From the NCBI GenBank assembly GCA_012270995.1, contig JAAXHG010000062.1, positions 25,881 to 89,880 of the forward strand: a DNA stretch of 64,000 nucleotides, in the 5' to 3' direction. Source of the DNA: Vicinamibacteraceae bacterium (lineage in GTDB: Bacteria > Acidobacteriota > Thermoanaerobaculia > Multivoradales > Multivoraceae). Shown here one piece after another: positions 1 to 48,040 of this stretch. Both the position numbers and the translations under genes were made by a program. The notes below the pieces were generated by a model. It had not been told where the DNA came from and did not search any database. It saw only the letters and a list, made by a program, of their open reading frames with translations. The number at the start of each line of letters is the position of its first letter. Position 1 is the first letter of the stretch.

Positions 1-1230
1 CGCCGCGTTGCCCCAGCGGTCGACCACGGAGTAGTGGGTCGTCTCCGTGCTCTCAGCAGGGGGCGCGACTTCGATCTGCGGCAGCGGCCGCGCCTCTTCG
101 GGATCGATCCGCGCCCGTAGCCCGTCTGCGTAGGCCTGGGACTCGAACTGCCCGCGCGGTACCTGGACGAAGTCGGGATCGCCGAGCAGGGTGTTCCGGT
201 CGCGGAAAGCGAGCCGCATGGCCTCAGCCTCCAGGTGGATCAGCTCGGCGCTGCCGAACGGGGGCAGGGGATCCCAGCCCTCGAGGATGTTGAGGATCAG
301 GCCCAGGGTCAGGCCGCCGGAGGAAACCGGCGGCATCGAGTAGATCGTGTGTCCGCGGTAGCGGATCTCGACCGGCTCTCGCCACACCGGCGCGTAGTCC
401 TCGAGGTCCTGGTGCGAGAGGAGCCCCCCGCCCCGCTCCATCTCGGCCACGATCAGGTCGGCGATCCGACCGCGATAGAAACCGTCCGGGCCCTGCTCCG
501 CGATCGCCTGAAGCGCGGCCGCAAGGTCCGGCTGTTCCAGCATCGCGCCCGGAGGCGGCGCCTCGCCGTCGACCAGAAACTGCATCGCACTGGCCGGGAA
601 CCGCTTGAGCCGCGGTGCCGCCGATTCGAGACTCCGGGATCGCGGCTCGTCGACTTCGTGGCCCCGGGCCAACTCCACAGCCGGCGCAACCAGGTCGCTC
701 CAGGGCAGGGTTCCATACGTCCGGTGCATCTCCCAAAGACCTGCCACCGAACCCGGGACGCCGGCCGCGAGGTGGCCGATCACCGCGCTCTCCGCGACCT
801 TGCCTTCATCATCCACAAACATGTCGCGGGTCGCGGCGCCGGGCGCCTTCTCGCGGTAGTCCAGGGCCCGCACTTCGCCGTCGCTGGATCGGTACACGAG
901 GAACCCGCCGCCGCCGATGTTGCCGGCCGCGGGCAGGACCGCTGCCAGCGCGAAGCCGACGGCTACCGCGGCGTCGATCGCGTTTCCGCCCTGCTCGAGG
1001 ACCGCGGCGCCGACATCCGAGGCGAGGCCATGGCCGCTGACGACCATGCCGTGCGTGCCATCAGCCGCTGGCGCCGTACCGCCGAGACGCCAGGACGACG
1101 GTCCCGAACCGGTTTCTGGTGCCTCCTCGGACCCCGCGCAGGAAAGTCCAAGCAGGACCGCGACGACCAGAGCGCCGGCAACCGGTCGGCGAACGAGCGG
1201 ACGCGAGGCAATGGTCGCGAGCCGGCTCAT
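1..1230 (-). CDS. ggt: Gamma-glutamyltranspeptidase (partial, C-terminus beyond window start); start codon at 1230..1228
   Basis: Reverse-strand translation begins MSRLATIASRPLV with a signal-like N-terminus. It carries GGT family motifs GHGLASDVGAAVLEQGGNAIDAAVA, GNIGGGGFLVY and the autoprocessing region TTHYSVVDRWGNA. Absent from the ORF track only because no stop lies in the window. Confidence 0.8.
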   Translation of the reverse strand, partial: MSRLATIASRPLVRRPVAGALVVAVLLGLSCAGSEEAPETGSGPSSWRLGGTAPAADGTHGMVVSGHGLASDVGAAVLEQGGNAIDAAVAVGFALAAVLPAAGNIGGGGFLVYRSSDGEVRALDYREKAPGAATRDMFVDDEGKVAESAVIGHLAAGVPGSVAGLWEMHRTYGTLPWSDLVAPAVELARGHEVDEPRSRSLESAAPRLKRFPASAMQFLVDGEAPPPGAMLEQPDLAAALQAIAEQGPDGFYRGRIADLIVAEMERGGGLLSHQDLEDYAPVWREPVEIRYRGHTIYSMPPVSSGGLTLGLILNILEGWDPLPPFGSAELIHLEAEAMRLAFRDRNTLLGDPDFVQVPRGQFESQAYADGLRARIDPEEARPLPQIEVAPPAESTETTHYSVVDRWGNAA

Positions 1231-1313
1231 CGCGGGGGCACGGTATCAAAGCGGCCGGATACGCTTGTTCCATCCTTGCCCGGAAACGGCTTCCCCAACA
1301 CCGGAGAAGAACC

Positions 1314-2423
1314 ATGCAGACGAAGCTCCCCGAGCTGACGATCGGCATCGAGGAGGAGTACCAGATCATCGACCCCGAAACACGGGAGTTGAAGCCCTTC
1401 ATCCAGGAGTTCCTTGAACAGGGCCAGATCGTGCTCCAGGAGCAGATCAAGGCGGAGCAGCTGCAGTGCCAGGTCGAGGTCGGCAGCGAGGTCTGCCGGT
1501 CGATCGACGAGGCCCGCCAGGAGCTCATCCGGCTTCGACGTTCCATTGCCCATCTGGCGTCGAGAAACGGCCTCCGCATCGCGGCCGCCAGCACCCATCC
1601 CTTCTCCTCCTGGCAGGAGCAGGACGTCACGGAAGCGCAGCGCTACATCACGATGCAGGAGACCTTCGGCGACGTGGCGCGGCGACTGCTGATCTTCGGC
1701 ATGCACGTCCACGTAGGCATTCCCGACCGCAACCTGCGGTTGGACATCATGGACCAGTCGCTCTACTTCCTTCCGCACCTGCTCGCCCTGTCGACCAGCT
1801 CGCCGTTCTGGCAGGGCCGCAACACGGGACTCAAGTCCTACCGCTCGGTCGTCTTCGAGAGCCTCCCCCGCTCCGGCCTGCCGCCGTCGCTTCGGTCCTA
1901 CGCCGAGTACGAGCGGCTGGTCGATGTTCTGGTCCAGACCAGGTGCATCGAGGAACCGACCCAAATCTGGTGGGATGTCCGGCCCCATCCAAAGTTCCCG
2001 ACGATCGAGTTTCGGGTCTGCGACGTCTGCACGAAGATCGACGAGGCGCTTTGCCTCACCGCGCTTCTGATGGCGATCGTGGCCAAGCTGATCCGTCTGC
2101 GCCACAACAACCAGGCTTGGCGGCGCTACCCCCGGCACCTGATCTACGAGAACAAGTGGCGGGCGATCCGCTACGGCATCGACGGCAAGCTGATCGACTT
2201 CGGCAAGGGCGAGGAGGTGCCGCTCCGGTTCCTGACCCTGGAACTACTCGAGTTCGTCGACGACGTGCTCGACGAACTCGGCGTCCGGAAGGAGGCGGAA
2301 TACGTCCACACGATCCTCGCCGAAGGCACGAGCGCCGACCGCCAGCTCAAGCGGGCCGCGACGGGCGACCTGAACGCCGTCGTCGACGGCCTGATCGAGG
2401 AGACCCGCGAGGGCTGCGAGTAG
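1314..2423 (+). CDS. Carboxylate-amine ligase, glutamate-cysteine ligase family 2 (YbdK-like)
   Basis: MQTKLPELTIGIEEEYQIIDPETREL...STHPFSSWQEQ...GMHVHVG matches GCS2 family N-terminal and catalytic motifs. AGGAGAAG RBS 5 nt upstream of ATG 1314. Divergent from ggt. Confidence 0.8.
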   Translation: MQTKLPELTIGIEEEYQIIDPETRELKPFIQEFLEQGQIVLQEQIKAEQLQCQVEVGSEVCRSIDEARQELIRLRRSIAHLASRNGLRIAAASTHPFSSWQEQDVTEAQRYITMQETFGDVARRLLIFGMHVHVGIPDRNLRLDIMDQSLYFLPHLLALSTSSPFWQGRNTGLKSYRSVVFESLPRSGLPPSLRSYAEYERLVDVLVQTRCIEEPTQIWWDVRPHPKFPTIEFRVCDVCTKIDEALCLTALLMAIVAKLIRLRHNNQAWRRYPRHLIYENKWRAIRYGIDGKLIDFGKGEEVPLRFLTLELLEFVDDVLDELGVRKEAEYVHTILAEGTSADRQLKRAATGDLNAVVDGLIEETREGCE

Positions 2424-2443
2424 CGAAGCGAGTCACCCGTCTG

Positions 2444-2613
2444 CGCCGGGGTCCGGAGGGGAGGGTCCCAGCGGCCGCTCGCGCTCCCTGAGTAGTGGGG
2501 AGGTTGGCGCTCGCTGCGGTCGGCTGCGCTCCGGTTGGGCGTCGGACGTTGAGATGTCGCTGGGCGTCGCTTGCCGACAGCCTCGCTGGGACCCTCCCCT
2601 CCGGACCCCGGCG
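2444..2613. repeat. MITE-like palindromic element, copy 1 (30-bp perfect terminal inverted repeats)
   Basis: cgccggggtccggaggggagggtcccagcg at 2444-2473 is the exact reverse complement of 2584-2613. The core GGGTCCCAGNGGCCGCTCGC...GCTCGCTGCGGTCGGCTGCGCTCCGGTT...GGCGTCGCTTGCCGACAGCC...CTGGGACCC recurs at 47849-48015. Confidence 0.65.
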
Positions 2614-2654
2614 CAGACTGGACGGCGTCGGACTGCGGCGCGTGGAGAACCAGC

Positions 2655-11602: not shown

Positions 11603-12988
11603 TTACTGGTTGTCACCCGCCGCCGGCTGCGGGAACTCCGGCAGCCCGCGTTCGAGCCACACGCCCGCCTGCATCACACGGTCGATCTGCCTCGTGTTGC
11701 GGATGTCCGCCAGGGGATCGGCGGAGAGCAGAACCAGGTCCGCCGCCATTCCCTCGGCGATCGAGCCGAAGTCTGGTTCCTCGGTGAGTTCAGCGGCCGC
11801 GGCGGCGCCGGCCGCCGCCAGGGTCTCAAGCGGCGTCAAGCCGCCTTCTTCGACGAGGGTTTCCAGCTCATGGTGCGTGCCCCAGCCGTAGGCGATGTTG
11901 CCGGCGCCGCTGTCGGAGCCGACAGTGATCGTGGCTCCAGCTTCGTTCATGCGGCGGATGAACTTCGTCACGTAGTCGTATGCGACCCGCCGTTTGGCGG
12001 TCGACTCGCTCTTCAGCATCGCGGCTCGGTTCTCGGGATCGAGTAGTCGTTCGAGCAGGGCTGGTTGAAGTCCGGCCCGGAACTCCTCGTCCTCGAGCAG
12101 CTCCGGGTGCTCGGCGACCCACCAGAAGGTCTTGGCCTGACCGAGCGCGGGCGCGAACGAGAGCCCCTTCTCTTGCACCATGGCGACGAACTCGTCGTCG
12201 ACCTCCTGGTCGCGGACGCCGTGGACGAAGAAGCGGACCCCAGCGTCGACCAGTTGCCAGACGTCCTCCTCGAAGAAGACGTGGGCCGAAACCGGGATGT
12301 CGTGCCGCGAGGCCTGGTCGGCGATGGCGGCGCGGATCTCGGGCCCGATCTTCGGCCGTGTGTCGAGGAAGGTGTCGACCCACATCTTGATCAGGTCGAC
12401 TTCCTGAGCGGCGAGTTCGCGCACCATCGCGCGGGCTTCCTCTTCGGTGGCCGGACCCAGCTTGCCCGGTGGAAAGCCCTCGGGGTGCGTGAAGCCGACC
12501 CCGGCGGTGAAGATGCGGGGCGCCGGCACGATGCCGGCACGTGCCTCGTCGATCTTCGCGGGCGTCTGACCATGGTCCGAGCCGAGGCTGCGGACGGTCA
12601 GCACGCCGGCGTGGAGCTGCAACGCCCAGGACCACTCCTCCAGGCCGTCGCGGTAGTGGTTGTGGAGGTCGACGAGACCGGGGATCAGGAACTTGCCCGC
12701 GGCGTCGATGACTTCTCCGCCCTCGGGCACCAGCACATCGGCGCGCGAGCCGGCATGCTCGATCCGGTCGCCGCGGACGATGACGACGGCGTCCTCGATC
12801 GGCGGTGCGCCAGTGCCGTCGATCAGGGTGGCGCCGGCGATCGTGATCGTGCCGGTGCCGTCGATGGCGGGTTGGTCGGCGGTGCAGCCGGAAAGCGCAG
12901 CGGCGAGTGCAATAGCGATTGCGAAGAGCCGGAACGGATCCGGATGCCGGCCAGAACCCGGGTGGCGCGAATCCGCGCCACCCGTGAC
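11603..12988 (-). CDS. Amidohydrolase family lipoprotein
   Basis: Lipobox-like LAAALSGC. LIPGLVDLHNHY (HxH). C-terminal EGMAADLVLLSADPL. GTG start inferred at 12988, where the signal peptide begins. The first ~120 codons of the six-frame ORF are compositional junk. Confidence 0.65.
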   Translation of the reverse strand, partial: VTGGADSRHPGSGRHPDPFRLFAIAIALAAALSGCTADQPAIDGTGTITIAGATLIDGTGAPPIEDAVVIVRGDRIEHAGSRADVLVPEGGEVIDAAGKFLIPGLVDLHNHYRDGLEEWSWALQLHAGVLTVRSLGSDHGQTPAKIDEARAGIVPAPRIFTAGVGFTHPEGFPPGKLGPATEEEARAMVRELAAQEVDLIKMWVDTFLDTRPKIGPEIRAAIADQASRHDIPVSAHVFFEEDVWQLVDAGVRFFVHGVRDQEVDDEFVAMVQEKGLSFAPALGQAKTFWWVAEHPELLEDEEFRAGLQPALLERLLDPENRAAMLKSESTAKRRVAYDYVTKFIRRMNEAGATITVGSDSGAGNIAYGWGTHHELETLVEEGGLTPLETLAAAGAAAAAELTEEPDFGSIAEGMAADLVLLSADPLADIRNTRQIDRVMQAGVWLERGLPEFPQPAAGDNQ

Positions 12989-13065
12989 CCAGTCCGCGCG
13001 CCCGTCATCGGGCGCACGGATGACAGGCCGGCGAACCCAGTGGTTGAACCCCGTGTGCGGTCCAA

Positions 13066-14167: not shown

Positions 14168-16165
14168 ATGTCATCAGGTTCTATGCTAGCCGTCGTGTTC
14201 CACCAACTCCGTTGGGGCCTCGGAGCACTCCAGGGCCTCCTCCTCTGCAACGCCGCCGCCGCTCAGTACGGCGCCGTGGACGGCGAATGGCGCCATCACG
14301 GCGGCGACGACGGGTTCACCCGCTACACGGCGCTCGACCAGATCGACGGCTCGAACTTCGGCCGGCTCGAACCCGTGTGGAAGTGGGCGTCCGCCGATTC
14401 TCGCATCGAGGCGAACTCGCCCTACCGGCGGCAGGTGTTCCGGTCGTCGCCCCTCGTCATCGGCGGACGCCTCTACATCCCAACCGAACTGAGCCAGGTC
14501 GCGGCGCTCGACGCCGCGACGGGCGAGGAACTCTGGGTCTACGACCCGAAGAGCTACGGGCGCGGCAAGCCGGCACAGAGCAACTACTACACCCGCGGCC
14601 TCGAGTACTGGAGCGACGGCGAGCAGGAGCGCCTCTTCATCGCCACGATCGGCAAGCAGCTCATCTCGATCGACCCCGCCACCGGGCTGCCCGACCGCGC
14701 CTTCGGCGAGGACGGCGTCGTCGAGCTCTCGCGAAACCTCGGTCGCGAGAACACGGAACTCCGCAACATCAGCCACGGCCAGCCGGTGATCGTCGTCGGC
14801 GACACGATCGTCGTTGGCTCCCGCATCTTCGACTTCCCGCTCCGGAACAACAATCCGCCCGGCCACGTGCGCGGCTACGACGTGCGCACCGGCGAGTTCA
14901 AGTGGCGCTTCCACACGATCCCTCAGGAGGGCGAGGAGTTCGTCGAAACCTGGGAGAACGACTCCTGGAAGACAACCGGTAACGCGAACGTGTGGGCGCC
15001 CATGACCGCGGACCAGGAACTCGGCTACGTCTACCTCGCCACCAGCACGCCGACCAGCGACTACTACGGGGGACTGCGCCACGGCGACAACGTCTACGCC
15101 GAGAGCCTGATCTGCGTCGACGCCGCGACCGGCGAACGGGTCTGGCACTTCCAGACCGTCCACCACGGCGTCTGGGACTACGACATCGCCTCGGCGCCGA
15201 ACCTGATCGACATCGTCGTCGAGGGCCGGCTGATCAAGGCCGTCGCCCAGGTCTCGAAGACCGCCTTCACCTACGTCTTCGATCGCGCCACCGGCGAGCC
15301 GGTGTGGCCGATCGAGGAGCGCGGCGTCCCCTGGGAAAGCACGCTCCCGGGCGAGAAGCTGTCGAAGACCCAGCCGTTTCCGACCAGGCCGCCGGCGTTC
15401 GACCGCCAGGGAGTCAGCGAGGACGACCTGATCGACTTCACGCCGGAACTCCGCGCCGAGGCGCTCGAGATCGCGGAGAAGTTCATCCTCGGGCCGATGT
15501 TCATGCCCCTGATCCGCCGAGGCGAGGGCGGCAAGGAAGCGATCCTGGCCGTGCCCGGAGCGGGTGGCGGCGCCAACCATCCGGGGGCAGCGGCCGACCC
15601 TGAGACCGGGATGCTCTACGTACAGTCGTTGACCCGGCCCTCGGGGATGGCACTGGTCAAGCCGGACGGAGCGCGAAGCTTCTGGCCCTATGTCCTCGAC
15701 CGCGTGTCGACGGCCGGGCCGCGCGGCCTGCCGCTGCTCAAGCCGCCGTATCGGCGCATCACGGCCATCGATTTGAACCGGGGTGACATCGCCTGGCAGG
15801 TGCCGCTCGGCGACGGACCGCGCAACCACCCGGCGATCCGCCACCTCAATCTGGGGCCGTTGGGCGGACTCTCGTCGAGCGCGGTGACGGAGGGCGGCAT
15901 CCTGGTCACGAAGACGCTCCTGGTCGCCCATGCCGCCCGATTCGAGGTCTACAACGACCGCTCGACCGTGCTCGGCAGCTCGCTTCAGGCCTACGACAAG
16001 TTCACCGGCGAACTGCTGGCCGAAGTGCTCACCGAGCGCGCGCTGCACGGCGCGCCGGTGAGCTACATGCAGAACGGGCGGCAGTTCATCGCGGTCACCG
16101 GCGGCGGCATGACGGAGCCGGCGGAACTCATCGCTTTCGCCCTGCCGGAGAGTGCAGCTCGATAG
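14168..16165 (+). CDS. PQQ-dependent dehydrogenase (quinoprotein, 8-bladed propeller), secreted
   Basis: Signal peptide. Repeated PQQ-propeller W-motifs (GELLW, GERVWHFQT, GEFKWRFHT, GEPVWP). Active-site region VWDYDIA (D-x-D). Start is internal to the six-frame ORF, whose 13952 N-terminus is shadow of the minus-strand gene. Confidence 0.8.
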   Translation: MSSGSMLAVVFHQLRWGLGALQGLLLCNAAAAQYGAVDGEWRHHGGDDGFTRYTALDQIDGSNFGRLEPVWKWASADSRIEANSPYRRQVFRSSPLVIGGRLYIPTELSQVAALDAATGEELWVYDPKSYGRGKPAQSNYYTRGLEYWSDGEQERLFIATIGKQLISIDPATGLPDRAFGEDGVVELSRNLGRENTELRNISHGQPVIVVGDTIVVGSRIFDFPLRNNNPPGHVRGYDVRTGEFKWRFHTIPQEGEEFVETWENDSWKTTGNANVWAPMTADQELGYVYLATSTPTSDYYGGLRHGDNVYAESLICVDAATGERVWHFQTVHHGVWDYDIASAPNLIDIVVEGRLIKAVAQVSKTAFTYVFDRATGEPVWPIEERGVPWESTLPGEKLSKTQPFPTRPPAFDRQGVSEDDLIDFTPELRAEALEIAEKFILGPMFMPLIRRGEGGKEAILAVPGAGGGANHPGAAADPETGMLYVQSLTRPSGMALVKPDGARSFWPYVLDRVSTAGPRGLPLLKPPYRRITAIDLNRGDIAWQVPLGDGPRNHPAIRHLNLGPLGGLSSSAVTEGGILVTKTLLVAHAARFEVYNDRSTVLGSSLQAYDKFTGELLAEVLTERALHGAPVSYMQNGRQFIAVTGGGMTEPAELIAFALPESAAR

Positions 16166-23626: not shown

Positions 23627-25402
23627 ATGCCGAAGCGTTACCGATACGCGCTCGCCGCCACCGTGGCCGCGGCTCAGCTCCTGAGCCTCGCCGCCGTCCA
23701 CGCGCAGTCCGGCGACGCGTTCGTCCCGGTCACCGACGAGATGCTCGTGAACCCGGCGCCGGAGGACTGGCTCATGTGGCGGCGCACCGCGAACGGCTGG
23801 GGCTACAGCCCGCTGGACCAGATCACCCCGGAGAACGTGGGCGATCTCCGAATGGTGTGGACGCGGTCGCTCAACGACGGCAGCCAGACGGGCACGCCGC
23901 TCGCCTACCGCGGCGTCATGTACATGCCGAACCCGAACGACGTCATCCAGGCGCTCGACGCCGCGACCGGCGACCTGATCTGGGAGCACCGGCGCAGAAT
24001 CCCCGAGGACGCGAAGGACTACGTCGGCGGCTTCCTGTCCCAGAACAACCGGAACATCGCGATCTTCGCGAACCTGATCATCGACACCAGCGTCGACGAC
24101 CACCTCTTCGCGCTCGACGCCGGGACCGGCAAGATGGTCTGGGAGACGATGGTCCTCGACTACAAGGTCCATCCCGCGCTCCAGGGCGCCGGCCCGATCA
24201 TCGGCGCCGGCAAGGCGTTCTCGGGCCGGAGCTGCTCGCCGCGCGGCGGGCCCGACGCCTGCGTGATCACGGCCCACGACGCGCTGACCGGCGAGGAAGT
24301 GTGGCGGCGCCGGACGATTCCGGCCCCCGGCGAACCCGGCGACGAGACCTGGGGCGACGTGCCGTTCGAGAAACGGGCCCACGTCGGCTCCTGGATGCCG
24401 CCGAGCTACGACCCGGAACTCAACCTGGTCTTCGCCGGCACCTCGGTCACGGCGCCGGCGCCGAAGTTCATGCTCGGCGGGGTCGACAGGACGCACCTCT
24501 ACCACAACTCGACGCTCGCGCTTGACGGCGACACCGGCGAGATCGTCTGGCACTACCAGCACATGAACGACCACTGGGACCTGGACCATCCGTTCGAGCG
24601 GGTGATCGTCGACACCGCCGTGGCGCCGGATCCCGACGAGGTGGCCTGGATCAACCCGAACATCGAGCCCGGCGAGGTGCGCAAGGTGATCACGGGGATC
24701 CCCGGCAAGACGGCTCTCGTCTACTCCATCGATCGGGAGACCGGCGAGTTCCTCTGGGCTCGACCGACCGTCTACCAGAACGTGATCCAGAGCATCGACG
24801 GCGAGACCGGCAAGGCGACGGAGAACCCGGAAGTCATCTTCCACGCGCTGGAGGAGGAGCGGCTCATCTGCCCGAACATGCACGGCGGCAAGGACTGGGA
24901 GGCCGGCGCCTACAGCCCGGAGACCAACACGCTGTATTACCCGCTGCGCAACATGTGCATGCCGACGCTGACGACGACCGACCCGAGCGCGTCCCACCCC
25001 TACTACGCCCTGAGCGTCCGCCACGAACTGGCGCCCGGCACGGAGAGCCTCGGCGCCGTCTACGCGATCTCCGCCGAGACCGGCAAGACCGTGTGGCTGC
25101 ACGAACAGCGCGCCTCGACGACCTCGCTGGTCGCCACCGGCGGGGGACTGCTCTTCGGCGGCGACGTGAACGGCCGCTTCAAGGCCTACAGCCAGGATAA
25201 GGGCGAGGTGCTGTGGGAGGTGAACCTCGGGGCGCCGGTTACCGGCTACCCGATCACCTACGCGGTCGACGGCACGCAGTACGTGGCGGTGAGCACCGGC
25301 ATCTCGGCGACCACGTCGAGCTTCCTGCGGCTGACGCCGGAGCTCAAGCCCGGCTTCGCGAACAACCTGTTCGTGTTCGCGCTGGAGTACACCAGTCCTT
25401 GA
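23627..25402 (+). CDS. PQQ-dependent alcohol/methanol dehydrogenase family quinoprotein (secreted)
   Basis: Signal peptide MPKRYRYALAATVAAAQLLSLAAVHA. GDLIWEH, GKMVWET, GEEVWRR, GEIVWHYQHMNDHWDLDHPFE, GEFLWAR and GKTVWLH propeller motifs. WDLD (D-x-D) at the active site. Confidence 0.8.
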   Translation: MPKRYRYALAATVAAAQLLSLAAVHAQSGDAFVPVTDEMLVNPAPEDWLMWRRTANGWGYSPLDQITPENVGDLRMVWTRSLNDGSQTGTPLAYRGVMYMPNPNDVIQALDAATGDLIWEHRRRIPEDAKDYVGGFLSQNNRNIAIFANLIIDTSVDDHLFALDAGTGKMVWETMVLDYKVHPALQGAGPIIGAGKAFSGRSCSPRGGPDACVITAHDALTGEEVWRRRTIPAPGEPGDETWGDVPFEKRAHVGSWMPPSYDPELNLVFAGTSVTAPAPKFMLGGVDRTHLYHNSTLALDGDTGEIVWHYQHMNDHWDLDHPFERVIVDTAVAPDPDEVAWINPNIEPGEVRKVITGIPGKTALVYSIDRETGEFLWARPTVYQNVIQSIDGETGKATENPEVIFHALEEERLICPNMHGGKDWEAGAYSPETNTLYYPLRNMCMPTLTTTDPSASHPYYALSVRHELAPGTESLGAVYAISAETGKTVWLHEQRASTTSLVATGGGLLFGGDVNGRFKAYSQDKGEVLWEVNLGAPVTGYPITYAVDGTQYVAVSTGISATTSSFLRLTPELKPGFANNLFVFALEYTSP

Positions 25403-36316: not shown

Positions 36317-39037
36317 GTGATGCTGCGGCAGGCTCTACACCGCTTTCGATGTCTGTGGGACCGGCGACGCAAGGACGCCGAACTCGACGAGGAAATCCGC
36401 TTCCATCTCGCCGCAGAAGCGGAGGAACGGATCGACGCGAGCCTGGCTCCCGAACGGGCGCGCGCCGAGGCACAGCGGGACTTCGGCAACGTCCTGCTGA
36501 CTCGCGAACTGACCCGCGAGGCCTGGGGGTGGGCACCGGCGGAGCGCCTTCTCAGGGACATCGCCTCGGCATTCCGGATGATGCGACGCAATGCCGGCTA
36601 CACCTGCGCTGTCGTTCTCACCCTGGCACTCGGCATTGGACTCAACGCCCCGATGTACGAGATGCTGTCGAGGCTTTTCCTTCAGCCGCCACCTCACATC
36701 GAGGACCCGGACGCCGTTCATCGCGTCTGGCTGAGCGAGCGCGACGACTCGGACGATCGCGGAGTCTTCACTGGCCCGGCCTCTGCATGGGATCGGATGC
36801 AGTGGCTCGAATTCAGCGCACTGAGCGCCGACAGCGCGCCCACCGGCGCGGTCGCGGGCTACACGGCACGCCGGTTCATGCCGAACGGACGGGGTCAGAC
36901 CGCCGAGAACCTCAGCGTCTCCTGGGTCACGGGAGCGTTCCTGGATCTCCTGGGAGTAGAGCCCACGATCGGCCGGCTGATCGGCCCGGAGGACGACGAC
37001 CCGGCGGCGGCACCCGTCGCCGTCGTCAGCGACGGCTACCGGCGGGAGAGGTTCGCCAGCCCGCAGGAAGCACTCGGCGCGACACTAGAATTCGACGACG
37101 TCACGTACGTCGTAGTCGGCGTGCTGCCCCCCGGCTTCTCCGGACCGGATCCGGGCGGGGTCGATGTCTGGCTACCTTTGAAACCGGCGGTAACGGCCTT
37201 GCGCGGGGACCGCTGGCGAAACTTCGGAAGTGGCTTCTATCTGACGCCATTGGCCCGGCTTCCGCGCGGTCTGACCCTCGACGCGGCCGGCGCAGCGGCG
37301 ACCGCCGCGGTCCGCGCGGCACGCGCCGACTCGCCCTTCGGGGACTCGCTCGACCCCGAAGCGACCGTCGTGCTGGGTTCCATCCTCAGGACCAGGGGTC
37401 CCTCCTCGCCGTCCGGCGAGATTCGCCTTGCACTGGTGGTAGGCGGCGTCACGCTGCTGGTGCTACTCATTGCGGCCGTCAACATGTCGAACCTTCTGTT
37501 GGTGCGAGTGGCGGCGCGCCGCCGCGAACTGGCGGTGCGCTACGCGCTCGGTGCCGGCAGATGGGGAGTCGGACGCCTGCTGGCGATAGAGAGTCTCGTG
37601 CTCGCCACGGTCTCCGGCGCCGTGGCGCTGGCCGTAGCAGGGGTAGCGGGCCGCACCCTGCGCCTCACCCTGCTGCCAGGACATCAGGGGACCGTGGACG
37701 CGCTGAACTTCACGGCTGTCGGCTTCACGGGGTTAGCCGTGCTTGCGGTCGGCCTCGGCGCGGCCATTGCGCCCGCCGTGTACGCGGCGCGGAGCCGGCA
37801 GATCGAGAGGCTGGACAGCTCGCGAGGCGCCAGCGCACTCGGTACGCCGGTCCGCACCGGCCTGATCGTCGTTCAGGTCGCGCTATCGCTGGTGCTGCTC
37901 TGCGGAACCGCCGTCTTCTACCGCTCGTTCGAGGCGGCGCGTCAGGTGGACGTCGGCTACGCGAAGGAGAACCTGATCACGGTGGACCTGGCGGGCTTTC
38001 GGCGCACCGGGCCGCTCGATGAAGCCGCGATCGACGCCCTGGAGTCCCGCCTCCAGTCACTACCGGACGTCCTCGATGTCGCCCAGGGAACGAACTCACC
38101 GATGTGGGGGCAGGCCGCGATGCCGCCACCACGGGTCGAAGGGCTGGACCGCCTACCGTTCAACGAAGGTCCCTACGTAAGCCTCACGACGTCCAACTTC
38201 TTCCGCGTCGCCGGCCTGGCGATTCTGGAAGGTCGCGGCTTTACCGAGTGGGATCGCGCCGAGACCCAGAAGGTCGCGGTCGTGGACACGACGTTCGCCG
38301 ACGGCATCTGGCCCGGCAGGAGCGCCGTGGGCCAGTGTCTCTTCTTCGGCCAGGCGTCCACGGACTGCACCACGGTCGTCGGCGTCGTGGAATCCGCCCT
38401 CGACAGGGGCCTACTGGACGCCGACCGCGCCGCCGTCTACTACCTGCCCATCTCCCAGGCTTCGTCGAATCCCATTCAGGCCGGCTTCGTGAAGAACATG
38501 CGCACGGTGGTCGTGCGGACTCGCGGGAACACAGCGCGCGCGGTGCAGCCAACCCTCCTCGCACTGGCGGACTTGTTCCCCGACCTCCCGCGCGACAATG
38601 TGCGGAGCCTCCAAACTGTCTTCGCGCCGCGGATCCGTACATGGACCATCGGTACGGGGCTGTTCGGCGCCTCCGCCGCCCTGGCGGTGCTGCTCGCCGC
38701 CATCGGGCTCTATGCGGTCATCGCCTTCGGGGTACGCCAACGCGAACTGGAGTTCGGCATCCGTCGCGCCCTTGGCGCCAGGGCGTCTCGCCTCCTGCGC
38801 ATGGTGCTGACCCGTGGCTTCTCCCTGGCGGCGGCCGGCGTCGTAGCCGGCACGCTCGCCGCGCTGTGGGCGGGCAGGTTCATCGAGCCGCTGCTCTTCG
38901 ACGACCGGACTCCCCGCGACCCGCTCGCGTTCGCCGTCGCCGCGCTGGTGCTCCTGACCATCGCGGTAGCGGCCTCCTTGCTGCCGGCCCGCCGGGCCTC
39001 TCGCGCCGACCCTCGTCAGGCGTTGGAGGCTGAGTAG
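36317..39037 (+). CDS. ADOP-family (acidobacterial duplicated orphan permease) FtsX/MacB-like ABC permease, copy 1
   Basis: 906 aa. N-terminal DAELDEEIRFHL...RDFGNV. Two FtsX-like 4-TM modules, each preceded by a large extracytoplasmic domain. Follows PadR by 14 nt. Confidence 0.75.
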   Translation: MMLRQALHRFRCLWDRRRKDAELDEEIRFHLAAEAEERIDASLAPERARAEAQRDFGNVLLTRELTREAWGWAPAERLLRDIASAFRMMRRNAGYTCAVVLTLALGIGLNAPMYEMLSRLFLQPPPHIEDPDAVHRVWLSERDDSDDRGVFTGPASAWDRMQWLEFSALSADSAPTGAVAGYTARRFMPNGRGQTAENLSVSWVTGAFLDLLGVEPTIGRLIGPEDDDPAAAPVAVVSDGYRRERFASPQEALGATLEFDDVTYVVVGVLPPGFSGPDPGGVDVWLPLKPAVTALRGDRWRNFGSGFYLTPLARLPRGLTLDAAGAAATAAVRAARADSPFGDSLDPEATVVLGSILRTRGPSSPSGEIRLALVVGGVTLLVLLIAAVNMSNLLLVRVAARRRELAVRYALGAGRWGVGRLLAIESLVLATVSGAVALAVAGVAGRTLRLTLLPGHQGTVDALNFTAVGFTGLAVLAVGLGAAIAPAVYAARSRQIERLDSSRGASALGTPVRTGLIVVQVALSLVLLCGTAVFYRSFEAARQVDVGYAKENLITVDLAGFRRTGPLDEAAIDALESRLQSLPDVLDVAQGTNSPMWGQAAMPPPRVEGLDRLPFNEGPYVSLTTSNFFRVAGLAILEGRGFTEWDRAETQKVAVVDTTFADGIWPGRSAVGQCLFFGQASTDCTTVVGVVESALDRGLLDADRAAVYYLPISQASSNPIQAGFVKNMRTVVVRTRGNTARAVQPTLLALADLFPDLPRDNVRSLQTVFAPRIRTWTIGTGLFGASAALAVLLAAIGLYAVIAFGVRQRELEFGIRRALGARASRLLRMVLTRGFSLAAAGVVAGTLAALWAGRFIEPLLFDDRTPRDPLAFAVAALVLLTIAVAASLLPARRASRADPRQALEAE

Positions 39038-39051
39038 CACCACCTAACCGG

Positions 39052-41784
39052 ATGCTGAAGCAGTTCTTGTTTCGCCTGCGTTCGAGCTGGGACCGGCGGC
39101 GGAGGGACGCCGAACTCGACGACGAGATCCGCTTCCATCTCGCCGAAGAAGCGGAAGAGCGAGTCGAGGCGGGCCTGTCTCCCGAACGAGCCCATGCCGA
39201 AGCACGGCGCGACTTCGGCAACGTCAGGCTGATTCGCGAGCGGACCCGCGAGACCTGGGGCTGGGCGCCCGTGGAGCTGCTCCTCAAGGACATCCGCGCC
39301 GCCTTCCGGATGATGCGGCGCAACACCGGCTACACCTGCGCCGTGGTCCTCACCCTGGCCCTCGGCATTGGCCTGAACGCCCCGATGTACGAGATGCTGT
39401 CCCGCCTCTTTCTCCAGCCGCCACCCCACATCGAGGACCCGGACCGCGTTCATCGCCTCTGGGTCAGCGAGCGCATCGATCCAGGCGATCGCGGCGCCTC
39501 CACGGGACGAACCTGGGTAGTCGATGCGATGCAGTGGCTCGACTTCGAGGCCCTGGCCGCAGACAGCGCACTCATCGACGGCGTCGCGGGCCACCGAGTC
39601 TCGTTCAGGACGAACGGCCGCGGTCAGCGCGCCGAGAATCTCACCGTCTCCTGGGTCACGGGAGAGTTCTTCGACTTCCTTGGCGTGGCTCCTACGGCCG
39701 GAAGGTTGATCGCCGCCACGGACGACCACCTGGCGGCGCAACCCGTTGCCGTGGTCAGCGACGGCTACGGGCGGCAGCGGTTCGGCAGCGCGGAGGAAGC
39801 GCTCGGCACGACGGTCAGCTTCGAGGACGTCACCTACCTCGTCGTCGGCGTGCTGCCGCGCGGCTTCTCCGGACCCCGCTCGAACGCAGTCGACGTCTGG
39901 CTCCCTCTTGAACACGCCGCAACCGCCAGCCGGGGGAACAGCTGGAGACGGTACGGAACCACCTTCTACCTCACACCGTTCGTCCGGCTGGCGCCCGGCG
40001 CGACGGAGGAGGCCGCCGGGGCCGCGGTGACTGCCGCTGTCCGGGCGGCGCGCGCCGCCTCGCGGTTCCCGGACTCCCTGGACCGGGAGGCGACCGTGGC
40101 TCTCGGCCCGATCCTTCGAACCCGCGGCCCCGTCACGCTGCGGCGCCACATGCGCCTGCCGCTGATCGCAGGCGGGATCACCTTCGTGGTGCTCCTCATC
40201 GCGGCCGTCAACATGTCGAACCTGCTGATGCTGCGGGTCGCTGCCAGACGACGCGAATTGGCGGTGCGCTACGCACTCGGCCTGGGACGATGGGGAATCG
40301 GACGTCTCCTGGTGACGGAGAGCCTGGTGCTCGCCGCCCTCTCGGGCATTGCGGCGTTGGCCGTTGCCACGGTCACCGGCGACGCTCTTCGCCGCACGCT
40401 CTTGCCGAGTTACCAGTGGGCCGAGGATCCGCTGGGCGCCACGGCAATCGGCTTCACCGGAATCGCCGTGCTCGGGATCGGCTTGGCGGCGGCCCTGGCC
40501 CCTGCCGTGTACGCGGCGCGCAGCCGGGGAATCGAAAGGCTCGACAGCTCCCGGGGCGCCAGCGCGCTCGGAACCCCCGTCCGCACCGGCCTGATCGTGG
40601 TCCAGGCCGCGCTGTCGGTCGTCCTGCTCAGCGGGACGGCCGTGTTCTACCGTTCCTTCGAAGCGGCGCGCCAGGTGGATGTCGGCTACGCCAAGGAGCA
40701 CCTGCTCACGGTGACTTTGGGGAGCTTTCACGGCGACACCCGCCTGGATGGCCTGGACGGCATCCCGCTCGACGAGAGCGCAATCCGCGCCATGGAGTCC
40801 CGCCTCCGGGATCTGCCCGGGGTGCTGGACGTCGCCCAGGGTACGAGTTCACCGATGTCGGGAAGCGGCGCGGCGTACGCGGACCTGCGCATCGACAGGC
40901 TCGACCGCCTGCCGTTCCGCTCCGGGCCCCATGTGAACTTCACTACGCCCAACTTCTTCGACGTCGCGGGGCTGGACATTCGGGAGGGCCGCGGCTTCAC
41001 GGAGTGGGACCGCGAAGGCACGCAGAAGGTCGCGGTCGTCAACACGTCGTTCGCGCAGCAGGTCTGGCCCGGTCGGAGCGCCGTCGGCCGTTGCCTGTTC
41101 GTCAGCGGCGACGCCGACTGCACGACGGTGGTCGGCGTGGTGGAACCAGCAGTGAACTGGACTCTGCCCGGAGCGGACCCGGTCTACTACCTGCCGATCG
41201 CCCAGGCGTCATCCGATCCGACCCTGTCGGGATGGACGAGCATCCAGCGTGCGCTGATCGTCCGAACCGCCTCAAGCCCCGGGCGCGTCGAGTCGCCGGT
41301 GCTTGCCGCCCTGGCCGAGCTGTTTCCAGAACTGCCGGGACACCACGTCCGGAACCTCTCCACACAGTTCGCCTCGCGGATTCGCACCTGGAGAACCGGA
41401 ACCCGCCTGTTCGCCGTCTCCGCGACGCTCGCCGTGTTGCTCGCGGCCATCGGGCTCTATGCGGTCATCGCCTTCGGCGTACGGCAGCGGGAGCACGAGT
41501 TCGGCATCCGTCGCGCCCTGGGCGCCAGGGCGTCGCGCGTTCTGCGGATGGTGCTCGCGCGCAGCCTCTCCCTAGCGGCGGCTGGTGTCGTGGCCGGCAC
41601 CCTCGCCGCGCTGTGGGCGGGTCGCTTCGTAGAACCGCTGCTGTTCGATGGCCGAACTCCCCGGGACCCGTTCGCGTTCGGAGTGGCGGCCCTGGTGCTA
41701 CTGGCGGTGGCCGTGAGCGCGTCGTTTCTTCCGGCCCGCCGGGCCGCCCGCGCCGACCCGCGTCGGGCGCTCGAGGCGGAGTAG
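39052..41784 (+). CDS. ADOP-family ABC permease, copy 2 (tandem paralog)
   Basis: 910 aa, colinear with copy 1 (MLKQFLFRLRSSWDRRRRDAELDDEIRFHL...). Long stretches of near-identical nucleotide sequence. Confidence 0.75.
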   Translation: MLKQFLFRLRSSWDRRRRDAELDDEIRFHLAEEAEERVEAGLSPERAHAEARRDFGNVRLIRERTRETWGWAPVELLLKDIRAAFRMMRRNTGYTCAVVLTLALGIGLNAPMYEMLSRLFLQPPPHIEDPDRVHRLWVSERIDPGDRGASTGRTWVVDAMQWLDFEALAADSALIDGVAGHRVSFRTNGRGQRAENLTVSWVTGEFFDFLGVAPTAGRLIAATDDHLAAQPVAVVSDGYGRQRFGSAEEALGTTVSFEDVTYLVVGVLPRGFSGPRSNAVDVWLPLEHAATASRGNSWRRYGTTFYLTPFVRLAPGATEEAAGAAVTAAVRAARAASRFPDSLDREATVALGPILRTRGPVTLRRHMRLPLIAGGITFVVLLIAAVNMSNLLMLRVAARRRELAVRYALGLGRWGIGRLLVTESLVLAALSGIAALAVATVTGDALRRTLLPSYQWAEDPLGATAIGFTGIAVLGIGLAAALAPAVYAARSRGIERLDSSRGASALGTPVRTGLIVVQAALSVVLLSGTAVFYRSFEAARQVDVGYAKEHLLTVTLGSFHGDTRLDGLDGIPLDESAIRAMESRLRDLPGVLDVAQGTSSPMSGSGAAYADLRIDRLDRLPFRSGPHVNFTTPNFFDVAGLDIREGRGFTEWDREGTQKVAVVNTSFAQQVWPGRSAVGRCLFVSGDADCTTVVGVVEPAVNWTLPGADPVYYLPIAQASSDPTLSGWTSIQRALIVRTASSPGRVESPVLAALAELFPELPGHHVRNLSTQFASRIRTWRTGTRLFAVSATLAVLLAAIGLYAVIAFGVRQREHEFGIRRALGARASRVLRMVLARSLSLAAAGVVAGTLAALWAGRFVEPLLFDGRTPRDPFAFGVAALVLLAVAVSASFLPARRAARADPRRALEAE

Positions 41785-44539: not shown

Positions 44540-45889
44540 ATGAAGACGATCATCGAGCCCTTCCGGATCAAGGCGGTCGAGCCGATCCGCCTCGCCAGTC
44601 CCGAGCAACGCGAAGAGGTGCTTCGCGACGCCCGCTTCAACCTGTTCAAGATCGCAGCGGAGCATGTGCTGATCGATCTCCTGACGGACAGCGGCACCGG
44701 CGCCATGAGCGCGCAGCAGTGGGCCGCGGTCATGCGCGCCGACGAGAGCTACGCCGGCTCGACGAGCTTCCTCCGCCTGCGCGAGACCGTCGAGGAGATC
44801 ATGGGGTTCGAGCGGATGCTGCCGACGCACCAGGGCCGAGCCAGCGAGCGGATCCTGTTCGATCTGATCGGCGGCGACGACAGGATCGTGCCGAACAACG
44901 CCCACTTCGACACCACCCGGGCGAACATCGAACACAGCGGCGCCCGGGCGGTCGACCTCGGCATTCCCGAGGCAACCGACCCGACGAACCGTCACCCGTT
45001 CAAGGGCAATCTCGATCTCGACCGGCTGGAGTCACTGCTTGCGGCCGAAAGCTCACGCGTACCCGTCGTCATGTGCACGGTGACGAGCAACACGAGCGGC
45101 GGCCAGCCCGTGAGCCTGGAGAACCTGCGCGCGACGCGGGACCTGTGCGACCGGCGCGGCGTGCCCCTGTTCCTGGATGCTTGCCGGTTCGCCGAGAACG
45201 CCTGGTTCATCAAGGAGCGGGAAGCCGGGCAGCAGGAGCGGTCCGCAAGGGACATCGCGCGCGAGATGTTCGATCTCGCCGACGGCGCCACGATCAGCGC
45301 CAAGAAGGACGGGATCGTCAACATCGGGGGCCTCCTGCTCCTGCGTGACCAGGAGCTGTTCCGCCGCGCCAGTGACCTGACGATCCTGACAGAGGGGTAC
45401 GTGACGTACGGGGGCCTCGCCGGCCGCGATCTCGAGGCGATGGCGCAGGGCTTCCGGGAGGTGCTCGACGAGGATTACCTGCGCTACCGGATCCGCAGCA
45501 CGACGTACGTCGGCGAGAAGCTGCTGGAGGCCGGCATCCAGATCGTCGAGCCGCCGGGAGGACACGCGATCTACATCGATGCCTGCCGGTTCTGCCCGCA
45601 CCTGTCCCGCGAGCAGCTCCCGGGCCAGGCGCTCGTGGTCGCTCTCTACCGGCATGCCGGCATCCGCACCTGCGAGGTGGGAACCGTCATGTTCGGCGCG
45701 CGGCAACAGCCGCCGCTCGACCTGGTCCGCCTGGCCGTGCCGCGGCGGGTCTACACGCAGTCCCACATGGACTACGTGGTCGAGGCGCTGGTGGAGTTGT
45801 ACGCCGAGCGCGAGCGGATCCGGGGGCTACGGATCGTGGGCGCTCCGGAAGCGCTGCCGCACTTCTCGGCGCGCTTCGAGGAGATCTAG
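44540..45889 (+). CDS. tnaA: Tryptophanase / tyrosine phenol-lyase family beta-eliminating lyase (PLP)
   Basis: MKTIIEPFRIKAVEPI N-terminus. PLP-lysine block ATISAKKDGIVNIGGLL. Length 449 aa typical of TnaA/TPL. Confidence 0.8.
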   Translation: MKTIIEPFRIKAVEPIRLASPEQREEVLRDARFNLFKIAAEHVLIDLLTDSGTGAMSAQQWAAVMRADESYAGSTSFLRLRETVEEIMGFERMLPTHQGRASERILFDLIGGDDRIVPNNAHFDTTRANIEHSGARAVDLGIPEATDPTNRHPFKGNLDLDRLESLLAAESSRVPVVMCTVTSNTSGGQPVSLENLRATRDLCDRRGVPLFLDACRFAENAWFIKEREAGQQERSARDIAREMFDLADGATISAKKDGIVNIGGLLLLRDQELFRRASDLTILTEGYVTYGGLAGRDLEAMAQGFREVLDEDYLRYRIRSTTYVGEKLLEAGIQIVEPPGGHAIYIDACRFCPHLSREQLPGQALVVALYRHAGIRTCEVGTVMFGARQQPPLDLVRLAVPRRVYTQSHMDYVVEALVELYAERERIRGLRIVGAPEALPHFSARFEEI

Positions 45890-46047: not shown

Positions 46048-47835
46048 CTAGGCCGTGCGCGGCAGGAGGCGGAACAAGCCGTACGCCGCCGCCAGCGCGG
46101 CGATGCCGAGGACCGCCGCGGCACCGAGACGTCCATAGAGCGCCATACCGGTCCCGAACAGCGCGGCGTAGACCGCCGCGCAGCCGAGCATCCAGGCGAG
46201 CAGCGCCGCGGTGGCGCTGCCGGGCTCGTCCGCCCGGGTTTCGACGACCTTCCGCCAGCCGCGCGCGAATGGCCGCACGCGGTCGTAGAACGATTGCAGG
46301 ACCGCCGTCTCCGTCGGCCGTGTGGCCATCGTGACGCCGAACCAGACCGCCGTGGTGAGCGCTACGCCGAGCAGGAGCTGAGCCGCAACCGAAGGCAGCG
46401 TCAGACCGACGGCGGCGTGGCCGAACTGAAACCACACGGCGACGGCGAACGACACGACCATCGCCGAGATCTCGGACCAGGCGTTGATCCGCCACCAGAA
46501 CCAGCGCAGCAGGAAGATGAGACCGGTGCCGGCGCCGATCTGGAGCAGGATCTGGAACGCCTGCATCGCGTTCTCGAGCCACAGCGCCACGATCGCCGCC
46601 AGCGCGACCAGGGCGACCGTCGACAGCCGCGCTACCAGGACGTAGTGCGACTCGCCGCGGCCCGGCCGGACGAAACGCCGGTACACGTCGTCGACGATGT
46701 AGGAGGCGCCCCAGTTGAGGTGCGTCGAGATCGTCGACATCAGGGCGGCCGCCAGCGACGCGACGACCAGGCCAAGCAGGCCGTGCGGCAGGAAGACCAG
46801 CATCGCCGGGTAGGCCAAATCGTGCCGGATGATCGACGGATCCAGATGCGGGAACGCCTCGGCGATCGAGTCCAGGGTCGGATAGACGACCAGCGAAGCC
46901 AGCGCGACCAGGATCCACGGCCATGGCCGCAGCGCATAGTGGGCGATGTTGAACCACAGGGTGGCGCCCATCGAGTCCCGCTCGCTCCTGGCCGCGAGCA
47001 TGCGCTGGGCCGCGTAGCCGCCCCCGCCCGGTTCGGCGCCCGGGTACCAGGTGGACCACCACTGGACGGCGATCGGAATCAGAAAGACGGTGGCGGCCGT
47101 CTCCCAGTCCGCGAAGTCGGGCAGCAGGGCGAGGCGCGCGGCGATGTCGGGGTTCGAGACGAGGCCGGAGAGACCACCGACAGCCGGGTGCGCGAGTGCG
47201 TACCAGGCGGCAGCGACCGAGCCCGCCATCGCGATGACGAACAGCATGAGGTCGGTGACGACGACACCCCACAGGCCGGAAGTCGCGGAGTACACGGCGG
47301 TCACCGCCGCCGCGACGAGCACCGTCGTGTACTTGTCGGCGCCCAGCAGGACGCCGCCGATCTTGATCCCGGCCAGCAGCACCGAGGCCATGATCATCAC
47401 GTTGAAGAACACGCCGAGGTACACGGCCCGGAACCCGCGCAGGAAGAGCGCAGCCCGCCCCGAGTACCGGAGCTCGTAGAAGCCGATGTCGGTGAACACC
47501 CCGGAACGCCGCCAGAGCTTCGCGTAGAAGAACGTCGTGCACATGCCGGTGATCAGGAACGCCCACCACATCCAGTTGCCGGAGACGCCGCCGTTCCGCA
47601 CCAGGTCCGTCACCAGGTTCGGGGTGTCGGTCGAGAACGTCGTGGCGACCATCGACGTGCCGAGCAGCCACCACGGCAGGTTCCGCCCGGCCAGGAAGAA
47701 CTGCCCTGTGCCGGCGCCGGCGCGCCGCGCGAAGAGGAGGCCGACGGCGAGGGCGAGCGCCCCGTAGGCGGCGAGGACGGTCCAGTCGAGGCCGTTCAGG
47801 CGCACGGCTGGGGCGGCGGCGACGGCGACGGACAT
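46048..47835 (-). CDS. Sodium:solute symporter (SSS/SLC5) family transporter
   Basis: 13+ TM helices. GQFFLAGRNLPWWLLGTSMVATTFSTDT matches SSS TM1-2 consensus. Start at MSVAVAAAP; the upstream 90 codons of the six-frame ORF lie in the MITE repeat. Confidence 0.7.
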   Translation of the reverse strand: MSVAVAAAPAVRLNGLDWTVLAAYGALALAVGLLFARRAGAGTGQFFLAGRNLPWWLLGTSMVATTFSTDTPNLVTDLVRNGGVSGNWMWWAFLITGMCTTFFYAKLWRRSGVFTDIGFYELRYSGRAALFLRGFRAVYLGVFFNVMIMASVLLAGIKIGGVLLGADKYTTVLVAAAVTAVYSATSGLWGVVVTDLMLFVIAMAGSVAAAWYALAHPAVGGLSGLVSNPDIAARLALLPDFADWETAATVFLIPIAVQWWSTWYPGAEPGGGGYAAQRMLAARSERDSMGATLWFNIAHYALRPWPWILVALASLVVYPTLDSIAEAFPHLDPSIIRHDLAYPAMLVFLPHGLLGLVVASLAAALMSTISTHLNWGASYIVDDVYRRFVRPGRGESHYVLVARLSTVALVALAAIVALWLENAMQAFQILLQIGAGTGLIFLLRWFWWRINAWSEISAMVVSFAVAVWFQFGHAAVGLTLPSVAAQLLLGVALTTAVWFGVTMATRPTETAVLQSFYDRVRPFARGWRKVVETRADEPGSATAALLAWMLGCAAVYAALFGTGMALYGRLGAAAVLGIAALAAAYGLFRLLPRTA

Positions 47836-47848
47836 ACCCGCCTGTCGC

Positions 47849-48015
47849 GGGTCGGGGGAGAGGGTCCCAGGGGCCGCTCGCACTTTCCTGGTGGATGGGA
47901 GGTGAGTGCTCGCTGCGGTCGGCTGCGCTCCGGTTTGGCGTCGTTCGATGAAAGGTCGTCGGGCGTCGCTTGCCGACAGCCCCCTGGGACCCTCTCCCCC
48001 GACCCACGACAGGCT
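47849..48015. repeat. MITE-like palindromic element, copy 2
   Basis: Terminal inverted repeats gggtcgggggagagggtcccagggg / cccctgggaccctctcccccgaccc. Internal core matches copy 1 at 2444-2613. 14 nt upstream of the SSS start codon. Confidence 0.65.
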
Positions 48016-48040
48016 GGAGGGCGTTGGTGACTGCGACCGC

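Follow-up and report, generated by a model that had tools for sequence, protein, structure and literature searches.

Two intergenic hairpin elements in an acidobacterial contig belong to a large, lineage-restricted family of structured repeats

The 64,000-nt stretch of DNA analyzed here (the window), which has a match in an ENA metagenome scaffold, contains two copies of a foldback element, copy A and copy B, which have the same orientation and are 81% identical over 136 ungapped nucleotides (Table 1). Copy A begins 12-20 nt past the stop codon of a GCS2 gene (2421-2423), in a convergent spacer between GCS2 on the plus strand and a VanZ-like gene on the minus strand, with the VanZ-like stop at 2655. 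Copy B is flanked by two minus-strand genes, NTP_transf_3-like (48041-49003) and SSS symporter (46048-47835), is antisense to both of them and is located 13 nt upstream of the SSS ATG at 47835 (all gene identities were assigned by Pfam). An earlier note on this DNA had described 30-bp perfect inverted repeats at copy A. Read directly in the window, positions 2444-2473 (CGCCGGGGTCCGGAGGGGAGGGTCCCAGCG) are indeed the exact reverse complement of 2584-2613, and a repeat search extended the arms to 38 nt, which are 97% complementary with a single mismatch and have 110 nt between them. The arms of copy B, found by the same search, measure 44 nt and are 89% complementary. A second copy with a recurring core had also been noted, and both core blocks, GCTCGCTGCGGTCGGCTGCGCTCCGGTT and GGGCGTCGCTTGCCGACAGCC, are identical in the two elements; each occurs exactly twice in the window, compared to 0.00-0.01 occurrences expected from shuffles. 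A profile search of the 64-kb window identified copies A and B only. Judged from the flanking genes, both copies are intergenic and copy A lies between convergent genes, as the note had it; the divergent arrangement that it gave for copy B was mistaken.

Table 1. Positions of the two copies and of their parts in the window
Feature	Position	Strand	Observation
Copy A, whole element	2430..2635	+	nhmmer profile match E = 5e-54; fold z = -8.96
Copy A, outer stem P1, 5' arm	2436..2473	+	conserved foot CACCCGTC (from 2434), conserved apex GAGGGTCCCAG
Copy A, small hairpin P2 (GCGCT...GGCGC)	2481..2510	+	U.G pairs possible on the plus strand only
Copy A, core block 1 GCTCGCTGCGGTCGGCTGCGCTCCGGTT	2509..2536	+	same in both window copies; contains the 20-mer that retrieves the family
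Copy A, variable short hairpin region	2537..2561	+	GGGCGTCG direct repeats on both sides
Copy A, core block 2 GGGCGTCGCTTGCCGACAGCC	2562..2582	+	same in both window copies
Copy A, P1, 3' arm	2584..2621	+	terminates in conserved GACTGG
Copy A, tail	2618..2631	+	conserved CTGGA + 3 nt + CGTCGG motif
Copy B, whole element	47822..48030	+	nhmmer E = 1e-53; fold z = -9.41
Copy B, P1, 5' arm	47837..47880	+	repeat search
Copy B, core block 1	47908..47935	+	exact match to copy A block
Copy B, core block 2	47961..47981	+	exact match to copy A block
Copy B, P1, 3' arm	47974..48017	+	tail CTGGA 48014-48018; CGTTGG motif 48021-48026

The sequence next to copy B is itself repetitive. Window positions 47806-47835, and many 5' leaders of other copies (L036, L068, L075), are G-rich and contain a variable number of GGCGTCGG or GGCGAC-like units. 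These leaders sit between the element and the upstream stop codon (at copy B, the SSS start), and the number of units differs between species at the same locus. The SSS ATG at 47835 is specific to the window: relatives have no start there, and all of them carry an ATG at the position of the window's in-frame GTG at 47805 (47803-47805 versus 47833-47835). The true SSS start may lie 30 nt further from the element.

Other repeats were also encountered in the window. A second, unrelated foldback at 45886-46051 has 21-nt arms that are 95% complementary and 124 nt apart, and its CTAG termini give TAG stops to both convergent genes, for a beta-eliminating lyase and for the SSS symporter. A 92%-identical copy is present elsewhere in another genome (L088 6686-6855), and the foldback is therefore a member of another dispersed repeat family. 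Two adjacent units of ~2.7 kb (36356-38734 versus 39088-41481), 69-84% identical, point to a tandem gene-cluster duplication. A ~50-nt coding repeat (…DAATGE..LW-like) is present ten times, at 14490-15310, 23937-25099 and 57548-57597 and with spacings of ~160-270 nt, and probably corresponds to beta-propeller/PQQ-type protein repeats in two or three genes.

Copies A and B are members of a large, lineage-restricted family of structured repeats in a marine Acidobacteriota clade (Thermoanaerobaculia / Candidatus Multivoraceae). Using a 20-mer from core block 1 to scan one genome per species, we found at least 114 matching places, nearly all in ~45 related MAGs, which speaks against the alternative raised in the earlier note of a local duplication with only two copies. 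The MAG labels among the matches listed are Thermoanaerobaculia, Candidatus Multivorans, 'Holophagales' and Acidobacteria, and many of these MAGs are sponge-derived. The second core block was present in 103 extracted hits, which are family members, and the remaining 14 comprise truncated or variant copies and accidental hits in other phyla. Gathering copies by an exact 20-mer inflates the apparent conservation of the core and favours well-kept copies. A profile made from 56 non-redundant copies gave 146 matches in 920 kb around the copies, some of them without the 20-mer and some in subfamilies with a diverged core. With the seed copies set aside, the DNA sampled has ~1 copy per 30-45 kb, which extrapolates to something of the order of 100 copies in a genome.

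Outside this lineage, the searches gave no family members. Rfam contained no match, neither at gathering thresholds for the whole window nor at E <= 10 for positions 2380-2680, and blastn found none to the element in plasmid and phage collections. In viral contigs, the 20-mer had 0 hits and a 17-mer had 2 chance hits without the element. The element was also absent from 371 kb of distant GCS2 loci (metagenome scan, homologues with at most 68% identity), which are a negative control and do not count as empty sites. No paper on Ca. Multivorans, and none describing this repeat, was found in the searchable literature. As far as Rfam and this literature show, the family is apparently undescribed.

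The anatomy of the element was derived from an alignment of the 56 non-redundant copies, which was also used for the covariation analysis. The consensus begins with a variable, G-rich 5' leader, often with (G)GCGTCGG, followed by a conserved foot, CACCCGCC, and by the ~35-bp stem P1, which is variable in its middle. The P1 apex, GAGGGTCCCAG(C/G)GG, is followed by CCGCTCGC and by the small variable hairpin P2. Then come core block 1, a short variable hairpin between GGGCGTCG direct repeats, and core block 2, and the consensus ends with the second P1 arm, closing in GGCTGG, and a tail A-NGN-CGTCGG. For the short hairpin of copy A, MFE prediction gives the candidate pairing GACGU/AUGUC, in a region (alignment columns ~130-157) that is variable and contains indels. 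The 3' consensus reads GGCTGGAnGGCGTCGG, and the G and T of its CGTC are at least 90% conserved in the 56 copies. The 5' CGTCGG is part of the consensus but only moderately conserved, and is missing at copy A. The two CGTC motifs are direct, not mirrored, and lie 5-10 nt away from the stem.

Conservation is unevenly distributed over the element. Its ends are asymmetric (CACCCGCC versus CCAGCC), and in the 56-copy alignment conservation is higher in the interior, with a nearly invariant core of ~50 nt, than at the ends. Within the arms, the conserved parts are the foot (CACCCGCC / GGCTGG) and the apex (GAGGGTCCCAG / CTGGGACCCTC). Invariance of the 20 search-word columns follows from the way the copies were chosen; core block 2, foot, apex and tail are at least 90% conserved in the 56 copies, even though they were not used for selection.

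Folding and covariation support the hairpin. Both window copies fold ~9 SD better than shuffled sequence, and 0 of 200 shuffles were as stable (Table 1). For both, folding is 14-16 kcal/mol more favourable on the plus strand than on the minus strand. In the 56 copies, 96.7% of the cells in the consensus structure are standard pairs, and 25 of the 47 consensus pairs show changes on both sides. None of 500 shuffles reached any of five pairing measures, and sliding the partners by 1-3 columns lowered the pairing to 35-55%. For P1, 22 of 26 pairs covary: the arm sequence differs between copies, with ~15 bp in the middle of the arm free to do so by compensatory change, and complementarity is retained. 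Given these compensatory differences between copies, the alignment indicates maintenance of the hairpin and not of a sequence bound by a transposase. At the base of P2, three of five pairs have changed on both sides, and pairs 75/100 and 79/93 are mostly U.G, while the stem foot has a conserved G.U and a fixed bulge. The U.G and G.U pairs of P2 and foot, like the bulge, exist on the plus strand only, and the element therefore has a functional strand, even though P1 is symmetric.

For the invariant core, the data are silent: there is no variation in the main family, so the predicted core helix is neither supported nor refuted. In the diverged-core subfamilies, the two core blocks co-vary directly, not complementarily. 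Coding potential of the core was considered and rejected, since copies differ by 1- and 4-nt indels in the variable region and no reading frame is kept; the similar six-frame peptides at the two window copies are a by-product of the repeat, as the earlier note had supposed. Neither a sigma-70 promoter consensus nor a U-tract terminator was found at copy A or B.

Most copies lie a short distance past the stop codon of a gene that points the same way, and the stop contexts are non-random. In the raw counts, which overstate position and stop-codon signals because many loci are orthologues, the gene on the 5' side had the orientation of the element in 80 of 106 cases, with the element usually starting 5-90 nt past its stop, whereas the gene on the 3' side had it in only half of the cases. 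Collapsing orthologues by single linkage left 38 loci, 35 of them informative, and the 5' gene was co-oriented in 26 of these 35. Co-directional spacers then comprised 8 sense versus 3 antisense cases, and there were 7 convergent versus 3 divergent cases. Among the stop contexts of the 5' genes, CTAG accounts for 37.5% (background 11%), and GTGA, TTGA and ATGA together for 4% (background 29%). In ~30 independent loci, we counted CTAG 8 times, GTAG 9 times, CTGA 11 times and TTAG twice, with no other stop contexts. The 5' genes code for outer-membrane barrels, three acyl-CoA dehydrogenases, PurU-like, RelA/SpoT, MoaA, TrkA, AcrB, GST, epimerases and others. The idea of a regulon was rejected, as the upstream genes are functionally unrelated.

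Once in place, copies are well conserved. The site of copy B is occupied in ten genomes, in which the core and the stem typical of this locus hardly vary and the flanking genes differ at many third positions. In 77 orthologous pairs, the identity was 0.92 for the element versus 0.86 for the 300-nt flanks, and higher for the element in 90% of the pairs, although the choice of copies with an intact 20-mer biases the values for the element upward. By locus group, the identities of element, 5' flank and 3' flank were 0.94, 0.93 and 0.82 for B (SSS), 0.88, 0.905 and 0.74 for OMP, 0.81, 0.957 and 0.61 for ACAD, 0.93, 0.92 and 0.51 for MoaA, and 0.90, 0.78 and 0.52 for TrkA. The rate at which the element evolves is thus close to that of coding DNA and far below that of ordinary spacer; some loci have a remodelled or replaced stem. 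Part of the conservation of the element could come from gene conversion between copies; that stems are specific to a locus speaks for vertical descent with constraint.

Copies are gained and lost between related genomes. The earlier note had suggested looking for empty sites, and the site of copy A is empty in four relatives with a GCS2 that is 86-91% identical (L196/197, L198, L199 and L200/201). In L196/197, the convergent gene overlaps GCS2, and in the three others the spacers are 74-143 nt long and have no profile match. GCS2 ends with ...GGCTGCGAC TGA (or TAG) in the empty-site relatives, and with ...GGCTGCGAG TAG CGAAGCGAGTCACCC in the window and in the 99.8%-identical L049. The last codon and stop are thus GAG TAG at copy A versus GAC TGA or GAC TAG in the empty relatives. 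Similarity ends inside the last codon, which places the stop codon on the side of the element. At a second site, L095 has no copy, L105, L042 and L015 have a diverged-core copy, and L056 has a remnant. Further rearrangements include copies that were inserted beside or within other copies (L021, L112), an arm with a triple 31-nt duplication (L013), a locus with only the 5' half of the element (L006), and a segmental tandem duplication that carries a copy (L068). In L012 (4077-5325), an IS3-family IS of 1.25 kb (OrfA HTH and OrfB DDE integrase core) lies between P2 and core block 1. This split copy was examined as a possible autonomous version and rejected, as the insert is an ordinary, unrelated IS3-family element.

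Target-site duplications (TSDs), which the earlier note had proposed to look for, were found neither in the comparison of filled and empty GCS2 sites nor consistently across copies. The CTGCG on both sides of copy A was tried as a TSD and rejected, as it is not repeated at other copies, and the flanking CGTCGG is a family-wide motif and not a copy-specific duplication. Within the 920 kb around the copies, which are a part of the genomes, there was no autonomous IS with the same ends. Orphan-arm searches yielded only chance matches, deletion derivatives and known module-containing copies. A motif search for a small HUH/Y1 ORF gave no candidate among 2,955 ORFs in the 920 kb, which is a weak test, such genes being single-copy.

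A smaller repeat is associated with some of the copies. This 72-nt two-hairpin unit opens with (C/T)GTC and AT, which are followed by a hairpin with a 12-bp stem and an ATGA loop, by CTGG and by a second hairpin (GGGTGGCGCG/CGCGCCACCC). About 12 copies carry it as an insertion at the P1 apex, and it is also found on its own; its sites include window positions 12946-13030 (minus strand), L049 887-959, L004 ~3610, L011 and L032 (two in tandem). L049 is 99.8% identical to window positions 1-2475, and the aligned stretches differ essentially by the 72-nt unit at 2475/2479. The unit, present in L049 and missing from the window, was therefore gained, moved or lost very recently. It fits the CGTC-REP pattern (PMC3733652) much better than the large element does. 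L049 and L069 are both binned as CO36388bin_1, even though the contig with the copy A orthologue is 99.8% and the contig with the copy B orthologue only 86-93% identical to the window, and the bin may be a mixture of two related populations.

Together, the above observations are best explained by a structured, non-autonomous repeat of a REP/ERIC-like kind, which inserts close to gene ends and is retained there as a hairpin, a reading to which we assign a probability of roughly 0.6. The element would spread as one strand folded into a hairpin, and an enzyme supplied in trans would recognize its shape together with short motifs, namely the CACCCGCC foot with the conserved bulge and G.U, the CTGGA tail and the flanking CGTC. 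The combination of a stem that is variable yet complementary with an invariant core points to recognition of shape and a few short motifs, and not of a terminal sequence. The most likely type of mover would be a single-strand HUH/Y1 (RAYT-like) transposase (for which the 920 kb yielded no gene), because its mechanism leaves no TSD and is strand-specific. It would also be the most economical candidate, as it could account for the missing TSDs, for the asymmetry between strands, for the hairpin and its fixed bulge and for the tetranucleotides on the flanks. Insertion would occur without duplication, preferentially at or just after stop codons, and insertions would survive where genes and promoters stay unbroken. 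Transcribed with the upstream gene, a copy may form a stable 3' or intercistronic hairpin, with a possible role in mRNA end protection, processing or attenuation, and such a role would explain why copies are conserved after insertion. Position, orientation and conservation are consistent with such an RNA hairpin role at gene ends. Several observations count against this best reading: the best-conserved locus is that of copy B, which runs antisense to the genes on either side, no transposase partner was found in the 920 kb, there is no U-tract terminator, the element is large compared to REPs, and after the collapse of orthologues the sense excess in co-directional spacers is only 8 versus 3.

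Alternatively, the element could be a host-functional RNA module (3'-UTR stabiliser, processing site or multicopy small RNA) that was spread by recombination or duplication. Such a module would fit the conservation at orthologous sites, which is comparable to that of coding DNA, as well as the covarying stems, the strand-specific inner hairpin and the nearly invariant core; the tendency of copies to be sense-oriented after stop codons and the tandem duplication in L068 also agree with it. However, ~100 copies per genome lie beside unrelated genes, copies are inserted into other copies or truncated, there are lineage-specific gains at otherwise conserved sites, and the best-conserved copy is antisense to its operon. 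With no Rfam match and no promoter or terminator consensus either, we regard a host module as possible but unlikely. It is also conceivable, though quite doubtful, that the interior is the functional unit, either as a multicopy small RNA or as a recognition or guide module of single-strand mobilisation using the GGCGTCGG motifs. In the small-RNA version, the ~110-nt interior, surrounded by a long perfect stem of a type that RNase III cleaves, would be made from about a hundred gene-end loci. In the mobilisation version, the flanking and internal GGCGTCGG repeats would serve as cleavage or target sites, which, if true, would provide a mechanism for 'orphan' CGTC-type repeats.

The earlier note had considered the element as a mobile MITE, a terminator or a source of structured RNA. 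In its classical form, a MITE is a deletion derivative of an IS with a DDE transposase, which moves by cut-and-paste via binding of the terminal inverted repeats (TIRs) and leaves TSDs. The idea of a multi-copy foldback that is gained and lost has held up, and the long TIRs, small size, intergenic position and presence or absence between relatives are all MITE-like, as is the conserved sequence of arm foot and apex. However, the TIR sequence is not common to all copies, with changes on both sides in 22 of 26 stem pairs; a consistent TSD is lacking, conservation peaks in the interior and not at the ends, and the two ends are asymmetric. In addition, the 920 kb contain no full-length partner, and the only IS seen is the unrelated IS3 member inside a copy. 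We consider a classical MITE improbable. A chance palindrome or a duplication local to the window would agree with there being only two copies within 64 kb, but it can practically be dismissed, given at least 114 places, nearly all in ~45 related genomes, and shuffles that never match the folding energy or the motif counts.

The family is a large structured repeat family in uncultivated sponge-associated Acidobacteriota, for which none is described in the searchable literature. Its architecture, with a 35-bp stem that is free to vary but always complementary around an invariant core, is unusual. It provides material for two questions, namely what moves CGTC-type repeats and why such elements become conserved at gene ends. 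There is also a practical side, as the repeats break MAG assemblies, create spurious ORFs and shift stop codons, and their annotation improves gene calls.

Among known repeats, the REPs offer the closest parallels. They fall into two superfamilies tagged by GTAG and CGTC (Di Nocera, De Gregorio & Rocco 2013, PMC3733652), are 20-40 bp in size and are found mostly downstream of ORFs, in unidirectional and convergent spacers (PMC3733652). They often form dimers with conserved spacers that result in large hairpins, and their ends can donate a TAG stop (PMC3733652). In the CGTC families, stems of 8-9 bp begin with AT, the loops measure 4-5 nt and the tail 3 bp, and a dedicated transposase is not known (PMC3733652). 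Like the CGTC-tagged REPs, the element described here is a high-copy extragenic palindrome, mostly downstream of ORFs, with TAG stop behaviour (GTAG and CTAG are frequent at the upstream stop codon), a CGTC beside the hairpin, a short conserved tail, and no dedicated transposase found. Unlike REPs, it is ~190-200 bp long (5-10 times larger), and has a ~35-bp stem and a structured interior of ~110 nt. Its two CGTC motifs are direct instead of mirrored and are located 5-10 nt from the stem, which is not the case in the CGTC REPs, and its arms do not represent two mirrored, tagged REP units.

REPINs, a subject of Bertels and Rainey that is also summarised in PMC3733652, are reportedly non-autonomous hairpin repeats mobilised by RAYT that consist of two inverted REP units and a short spacer. 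The cognate RAYT gene is flanked by REP units, the hairpin is kept by compensatory change, TSDs are absent, and the presumed mode of movement is single-strand transfer by an HUH/Y1 enzyme. The element shares with REPINs the maintenance of a hairpin by compensatory change and the lack of a TSD, but it has no mirrored tagged units, and our motif search found no small ORF with HUH and Tyr among the loci searched. The Correia/NEMIS elements of Neisseria (100-155 bp) have inverted ends and a central IHF site, are co-transcribed with their neighbours, and form hairpins that are cut by RNase III. Their 26-bp TIRs are conserved in sequence and they have a TA target duplication, whereas the arms of our element covary and no duplication was seen. 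IS200/IS605-derived elements (PATE) are strand-specific, lack TIRs and TSDs, have subterminal hairpins and insert 3' of a fixed tetra- or pentanucleotide. The element described here has no TSD and shows strand-specific features, and its recurrent flanking CGTC and enriched stop contexts are suggestive; unlike PATE, it is one large hairpin and not two subterminal ones.

ERIC/IRU elements of enterobacteria are imperfect palindromes of 100-200 bp in transcribed intergenic DNA. Their sequence is well conserved across species while their locations differ, and their effect on mRNA stability depends on orientation. To our knowledge, ERIC has no TSD-based definition and no known transposase. Sequence and host phylum are unrelated to those of the element described here, and ERIC is conserved over its whole sequence, whereas here a long stem varies by compensation around an invariant core. 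In our best reading, the element is closest in kind to REP, REP-dimer and ERIC elements, more so than to a transposon-derived MITE.
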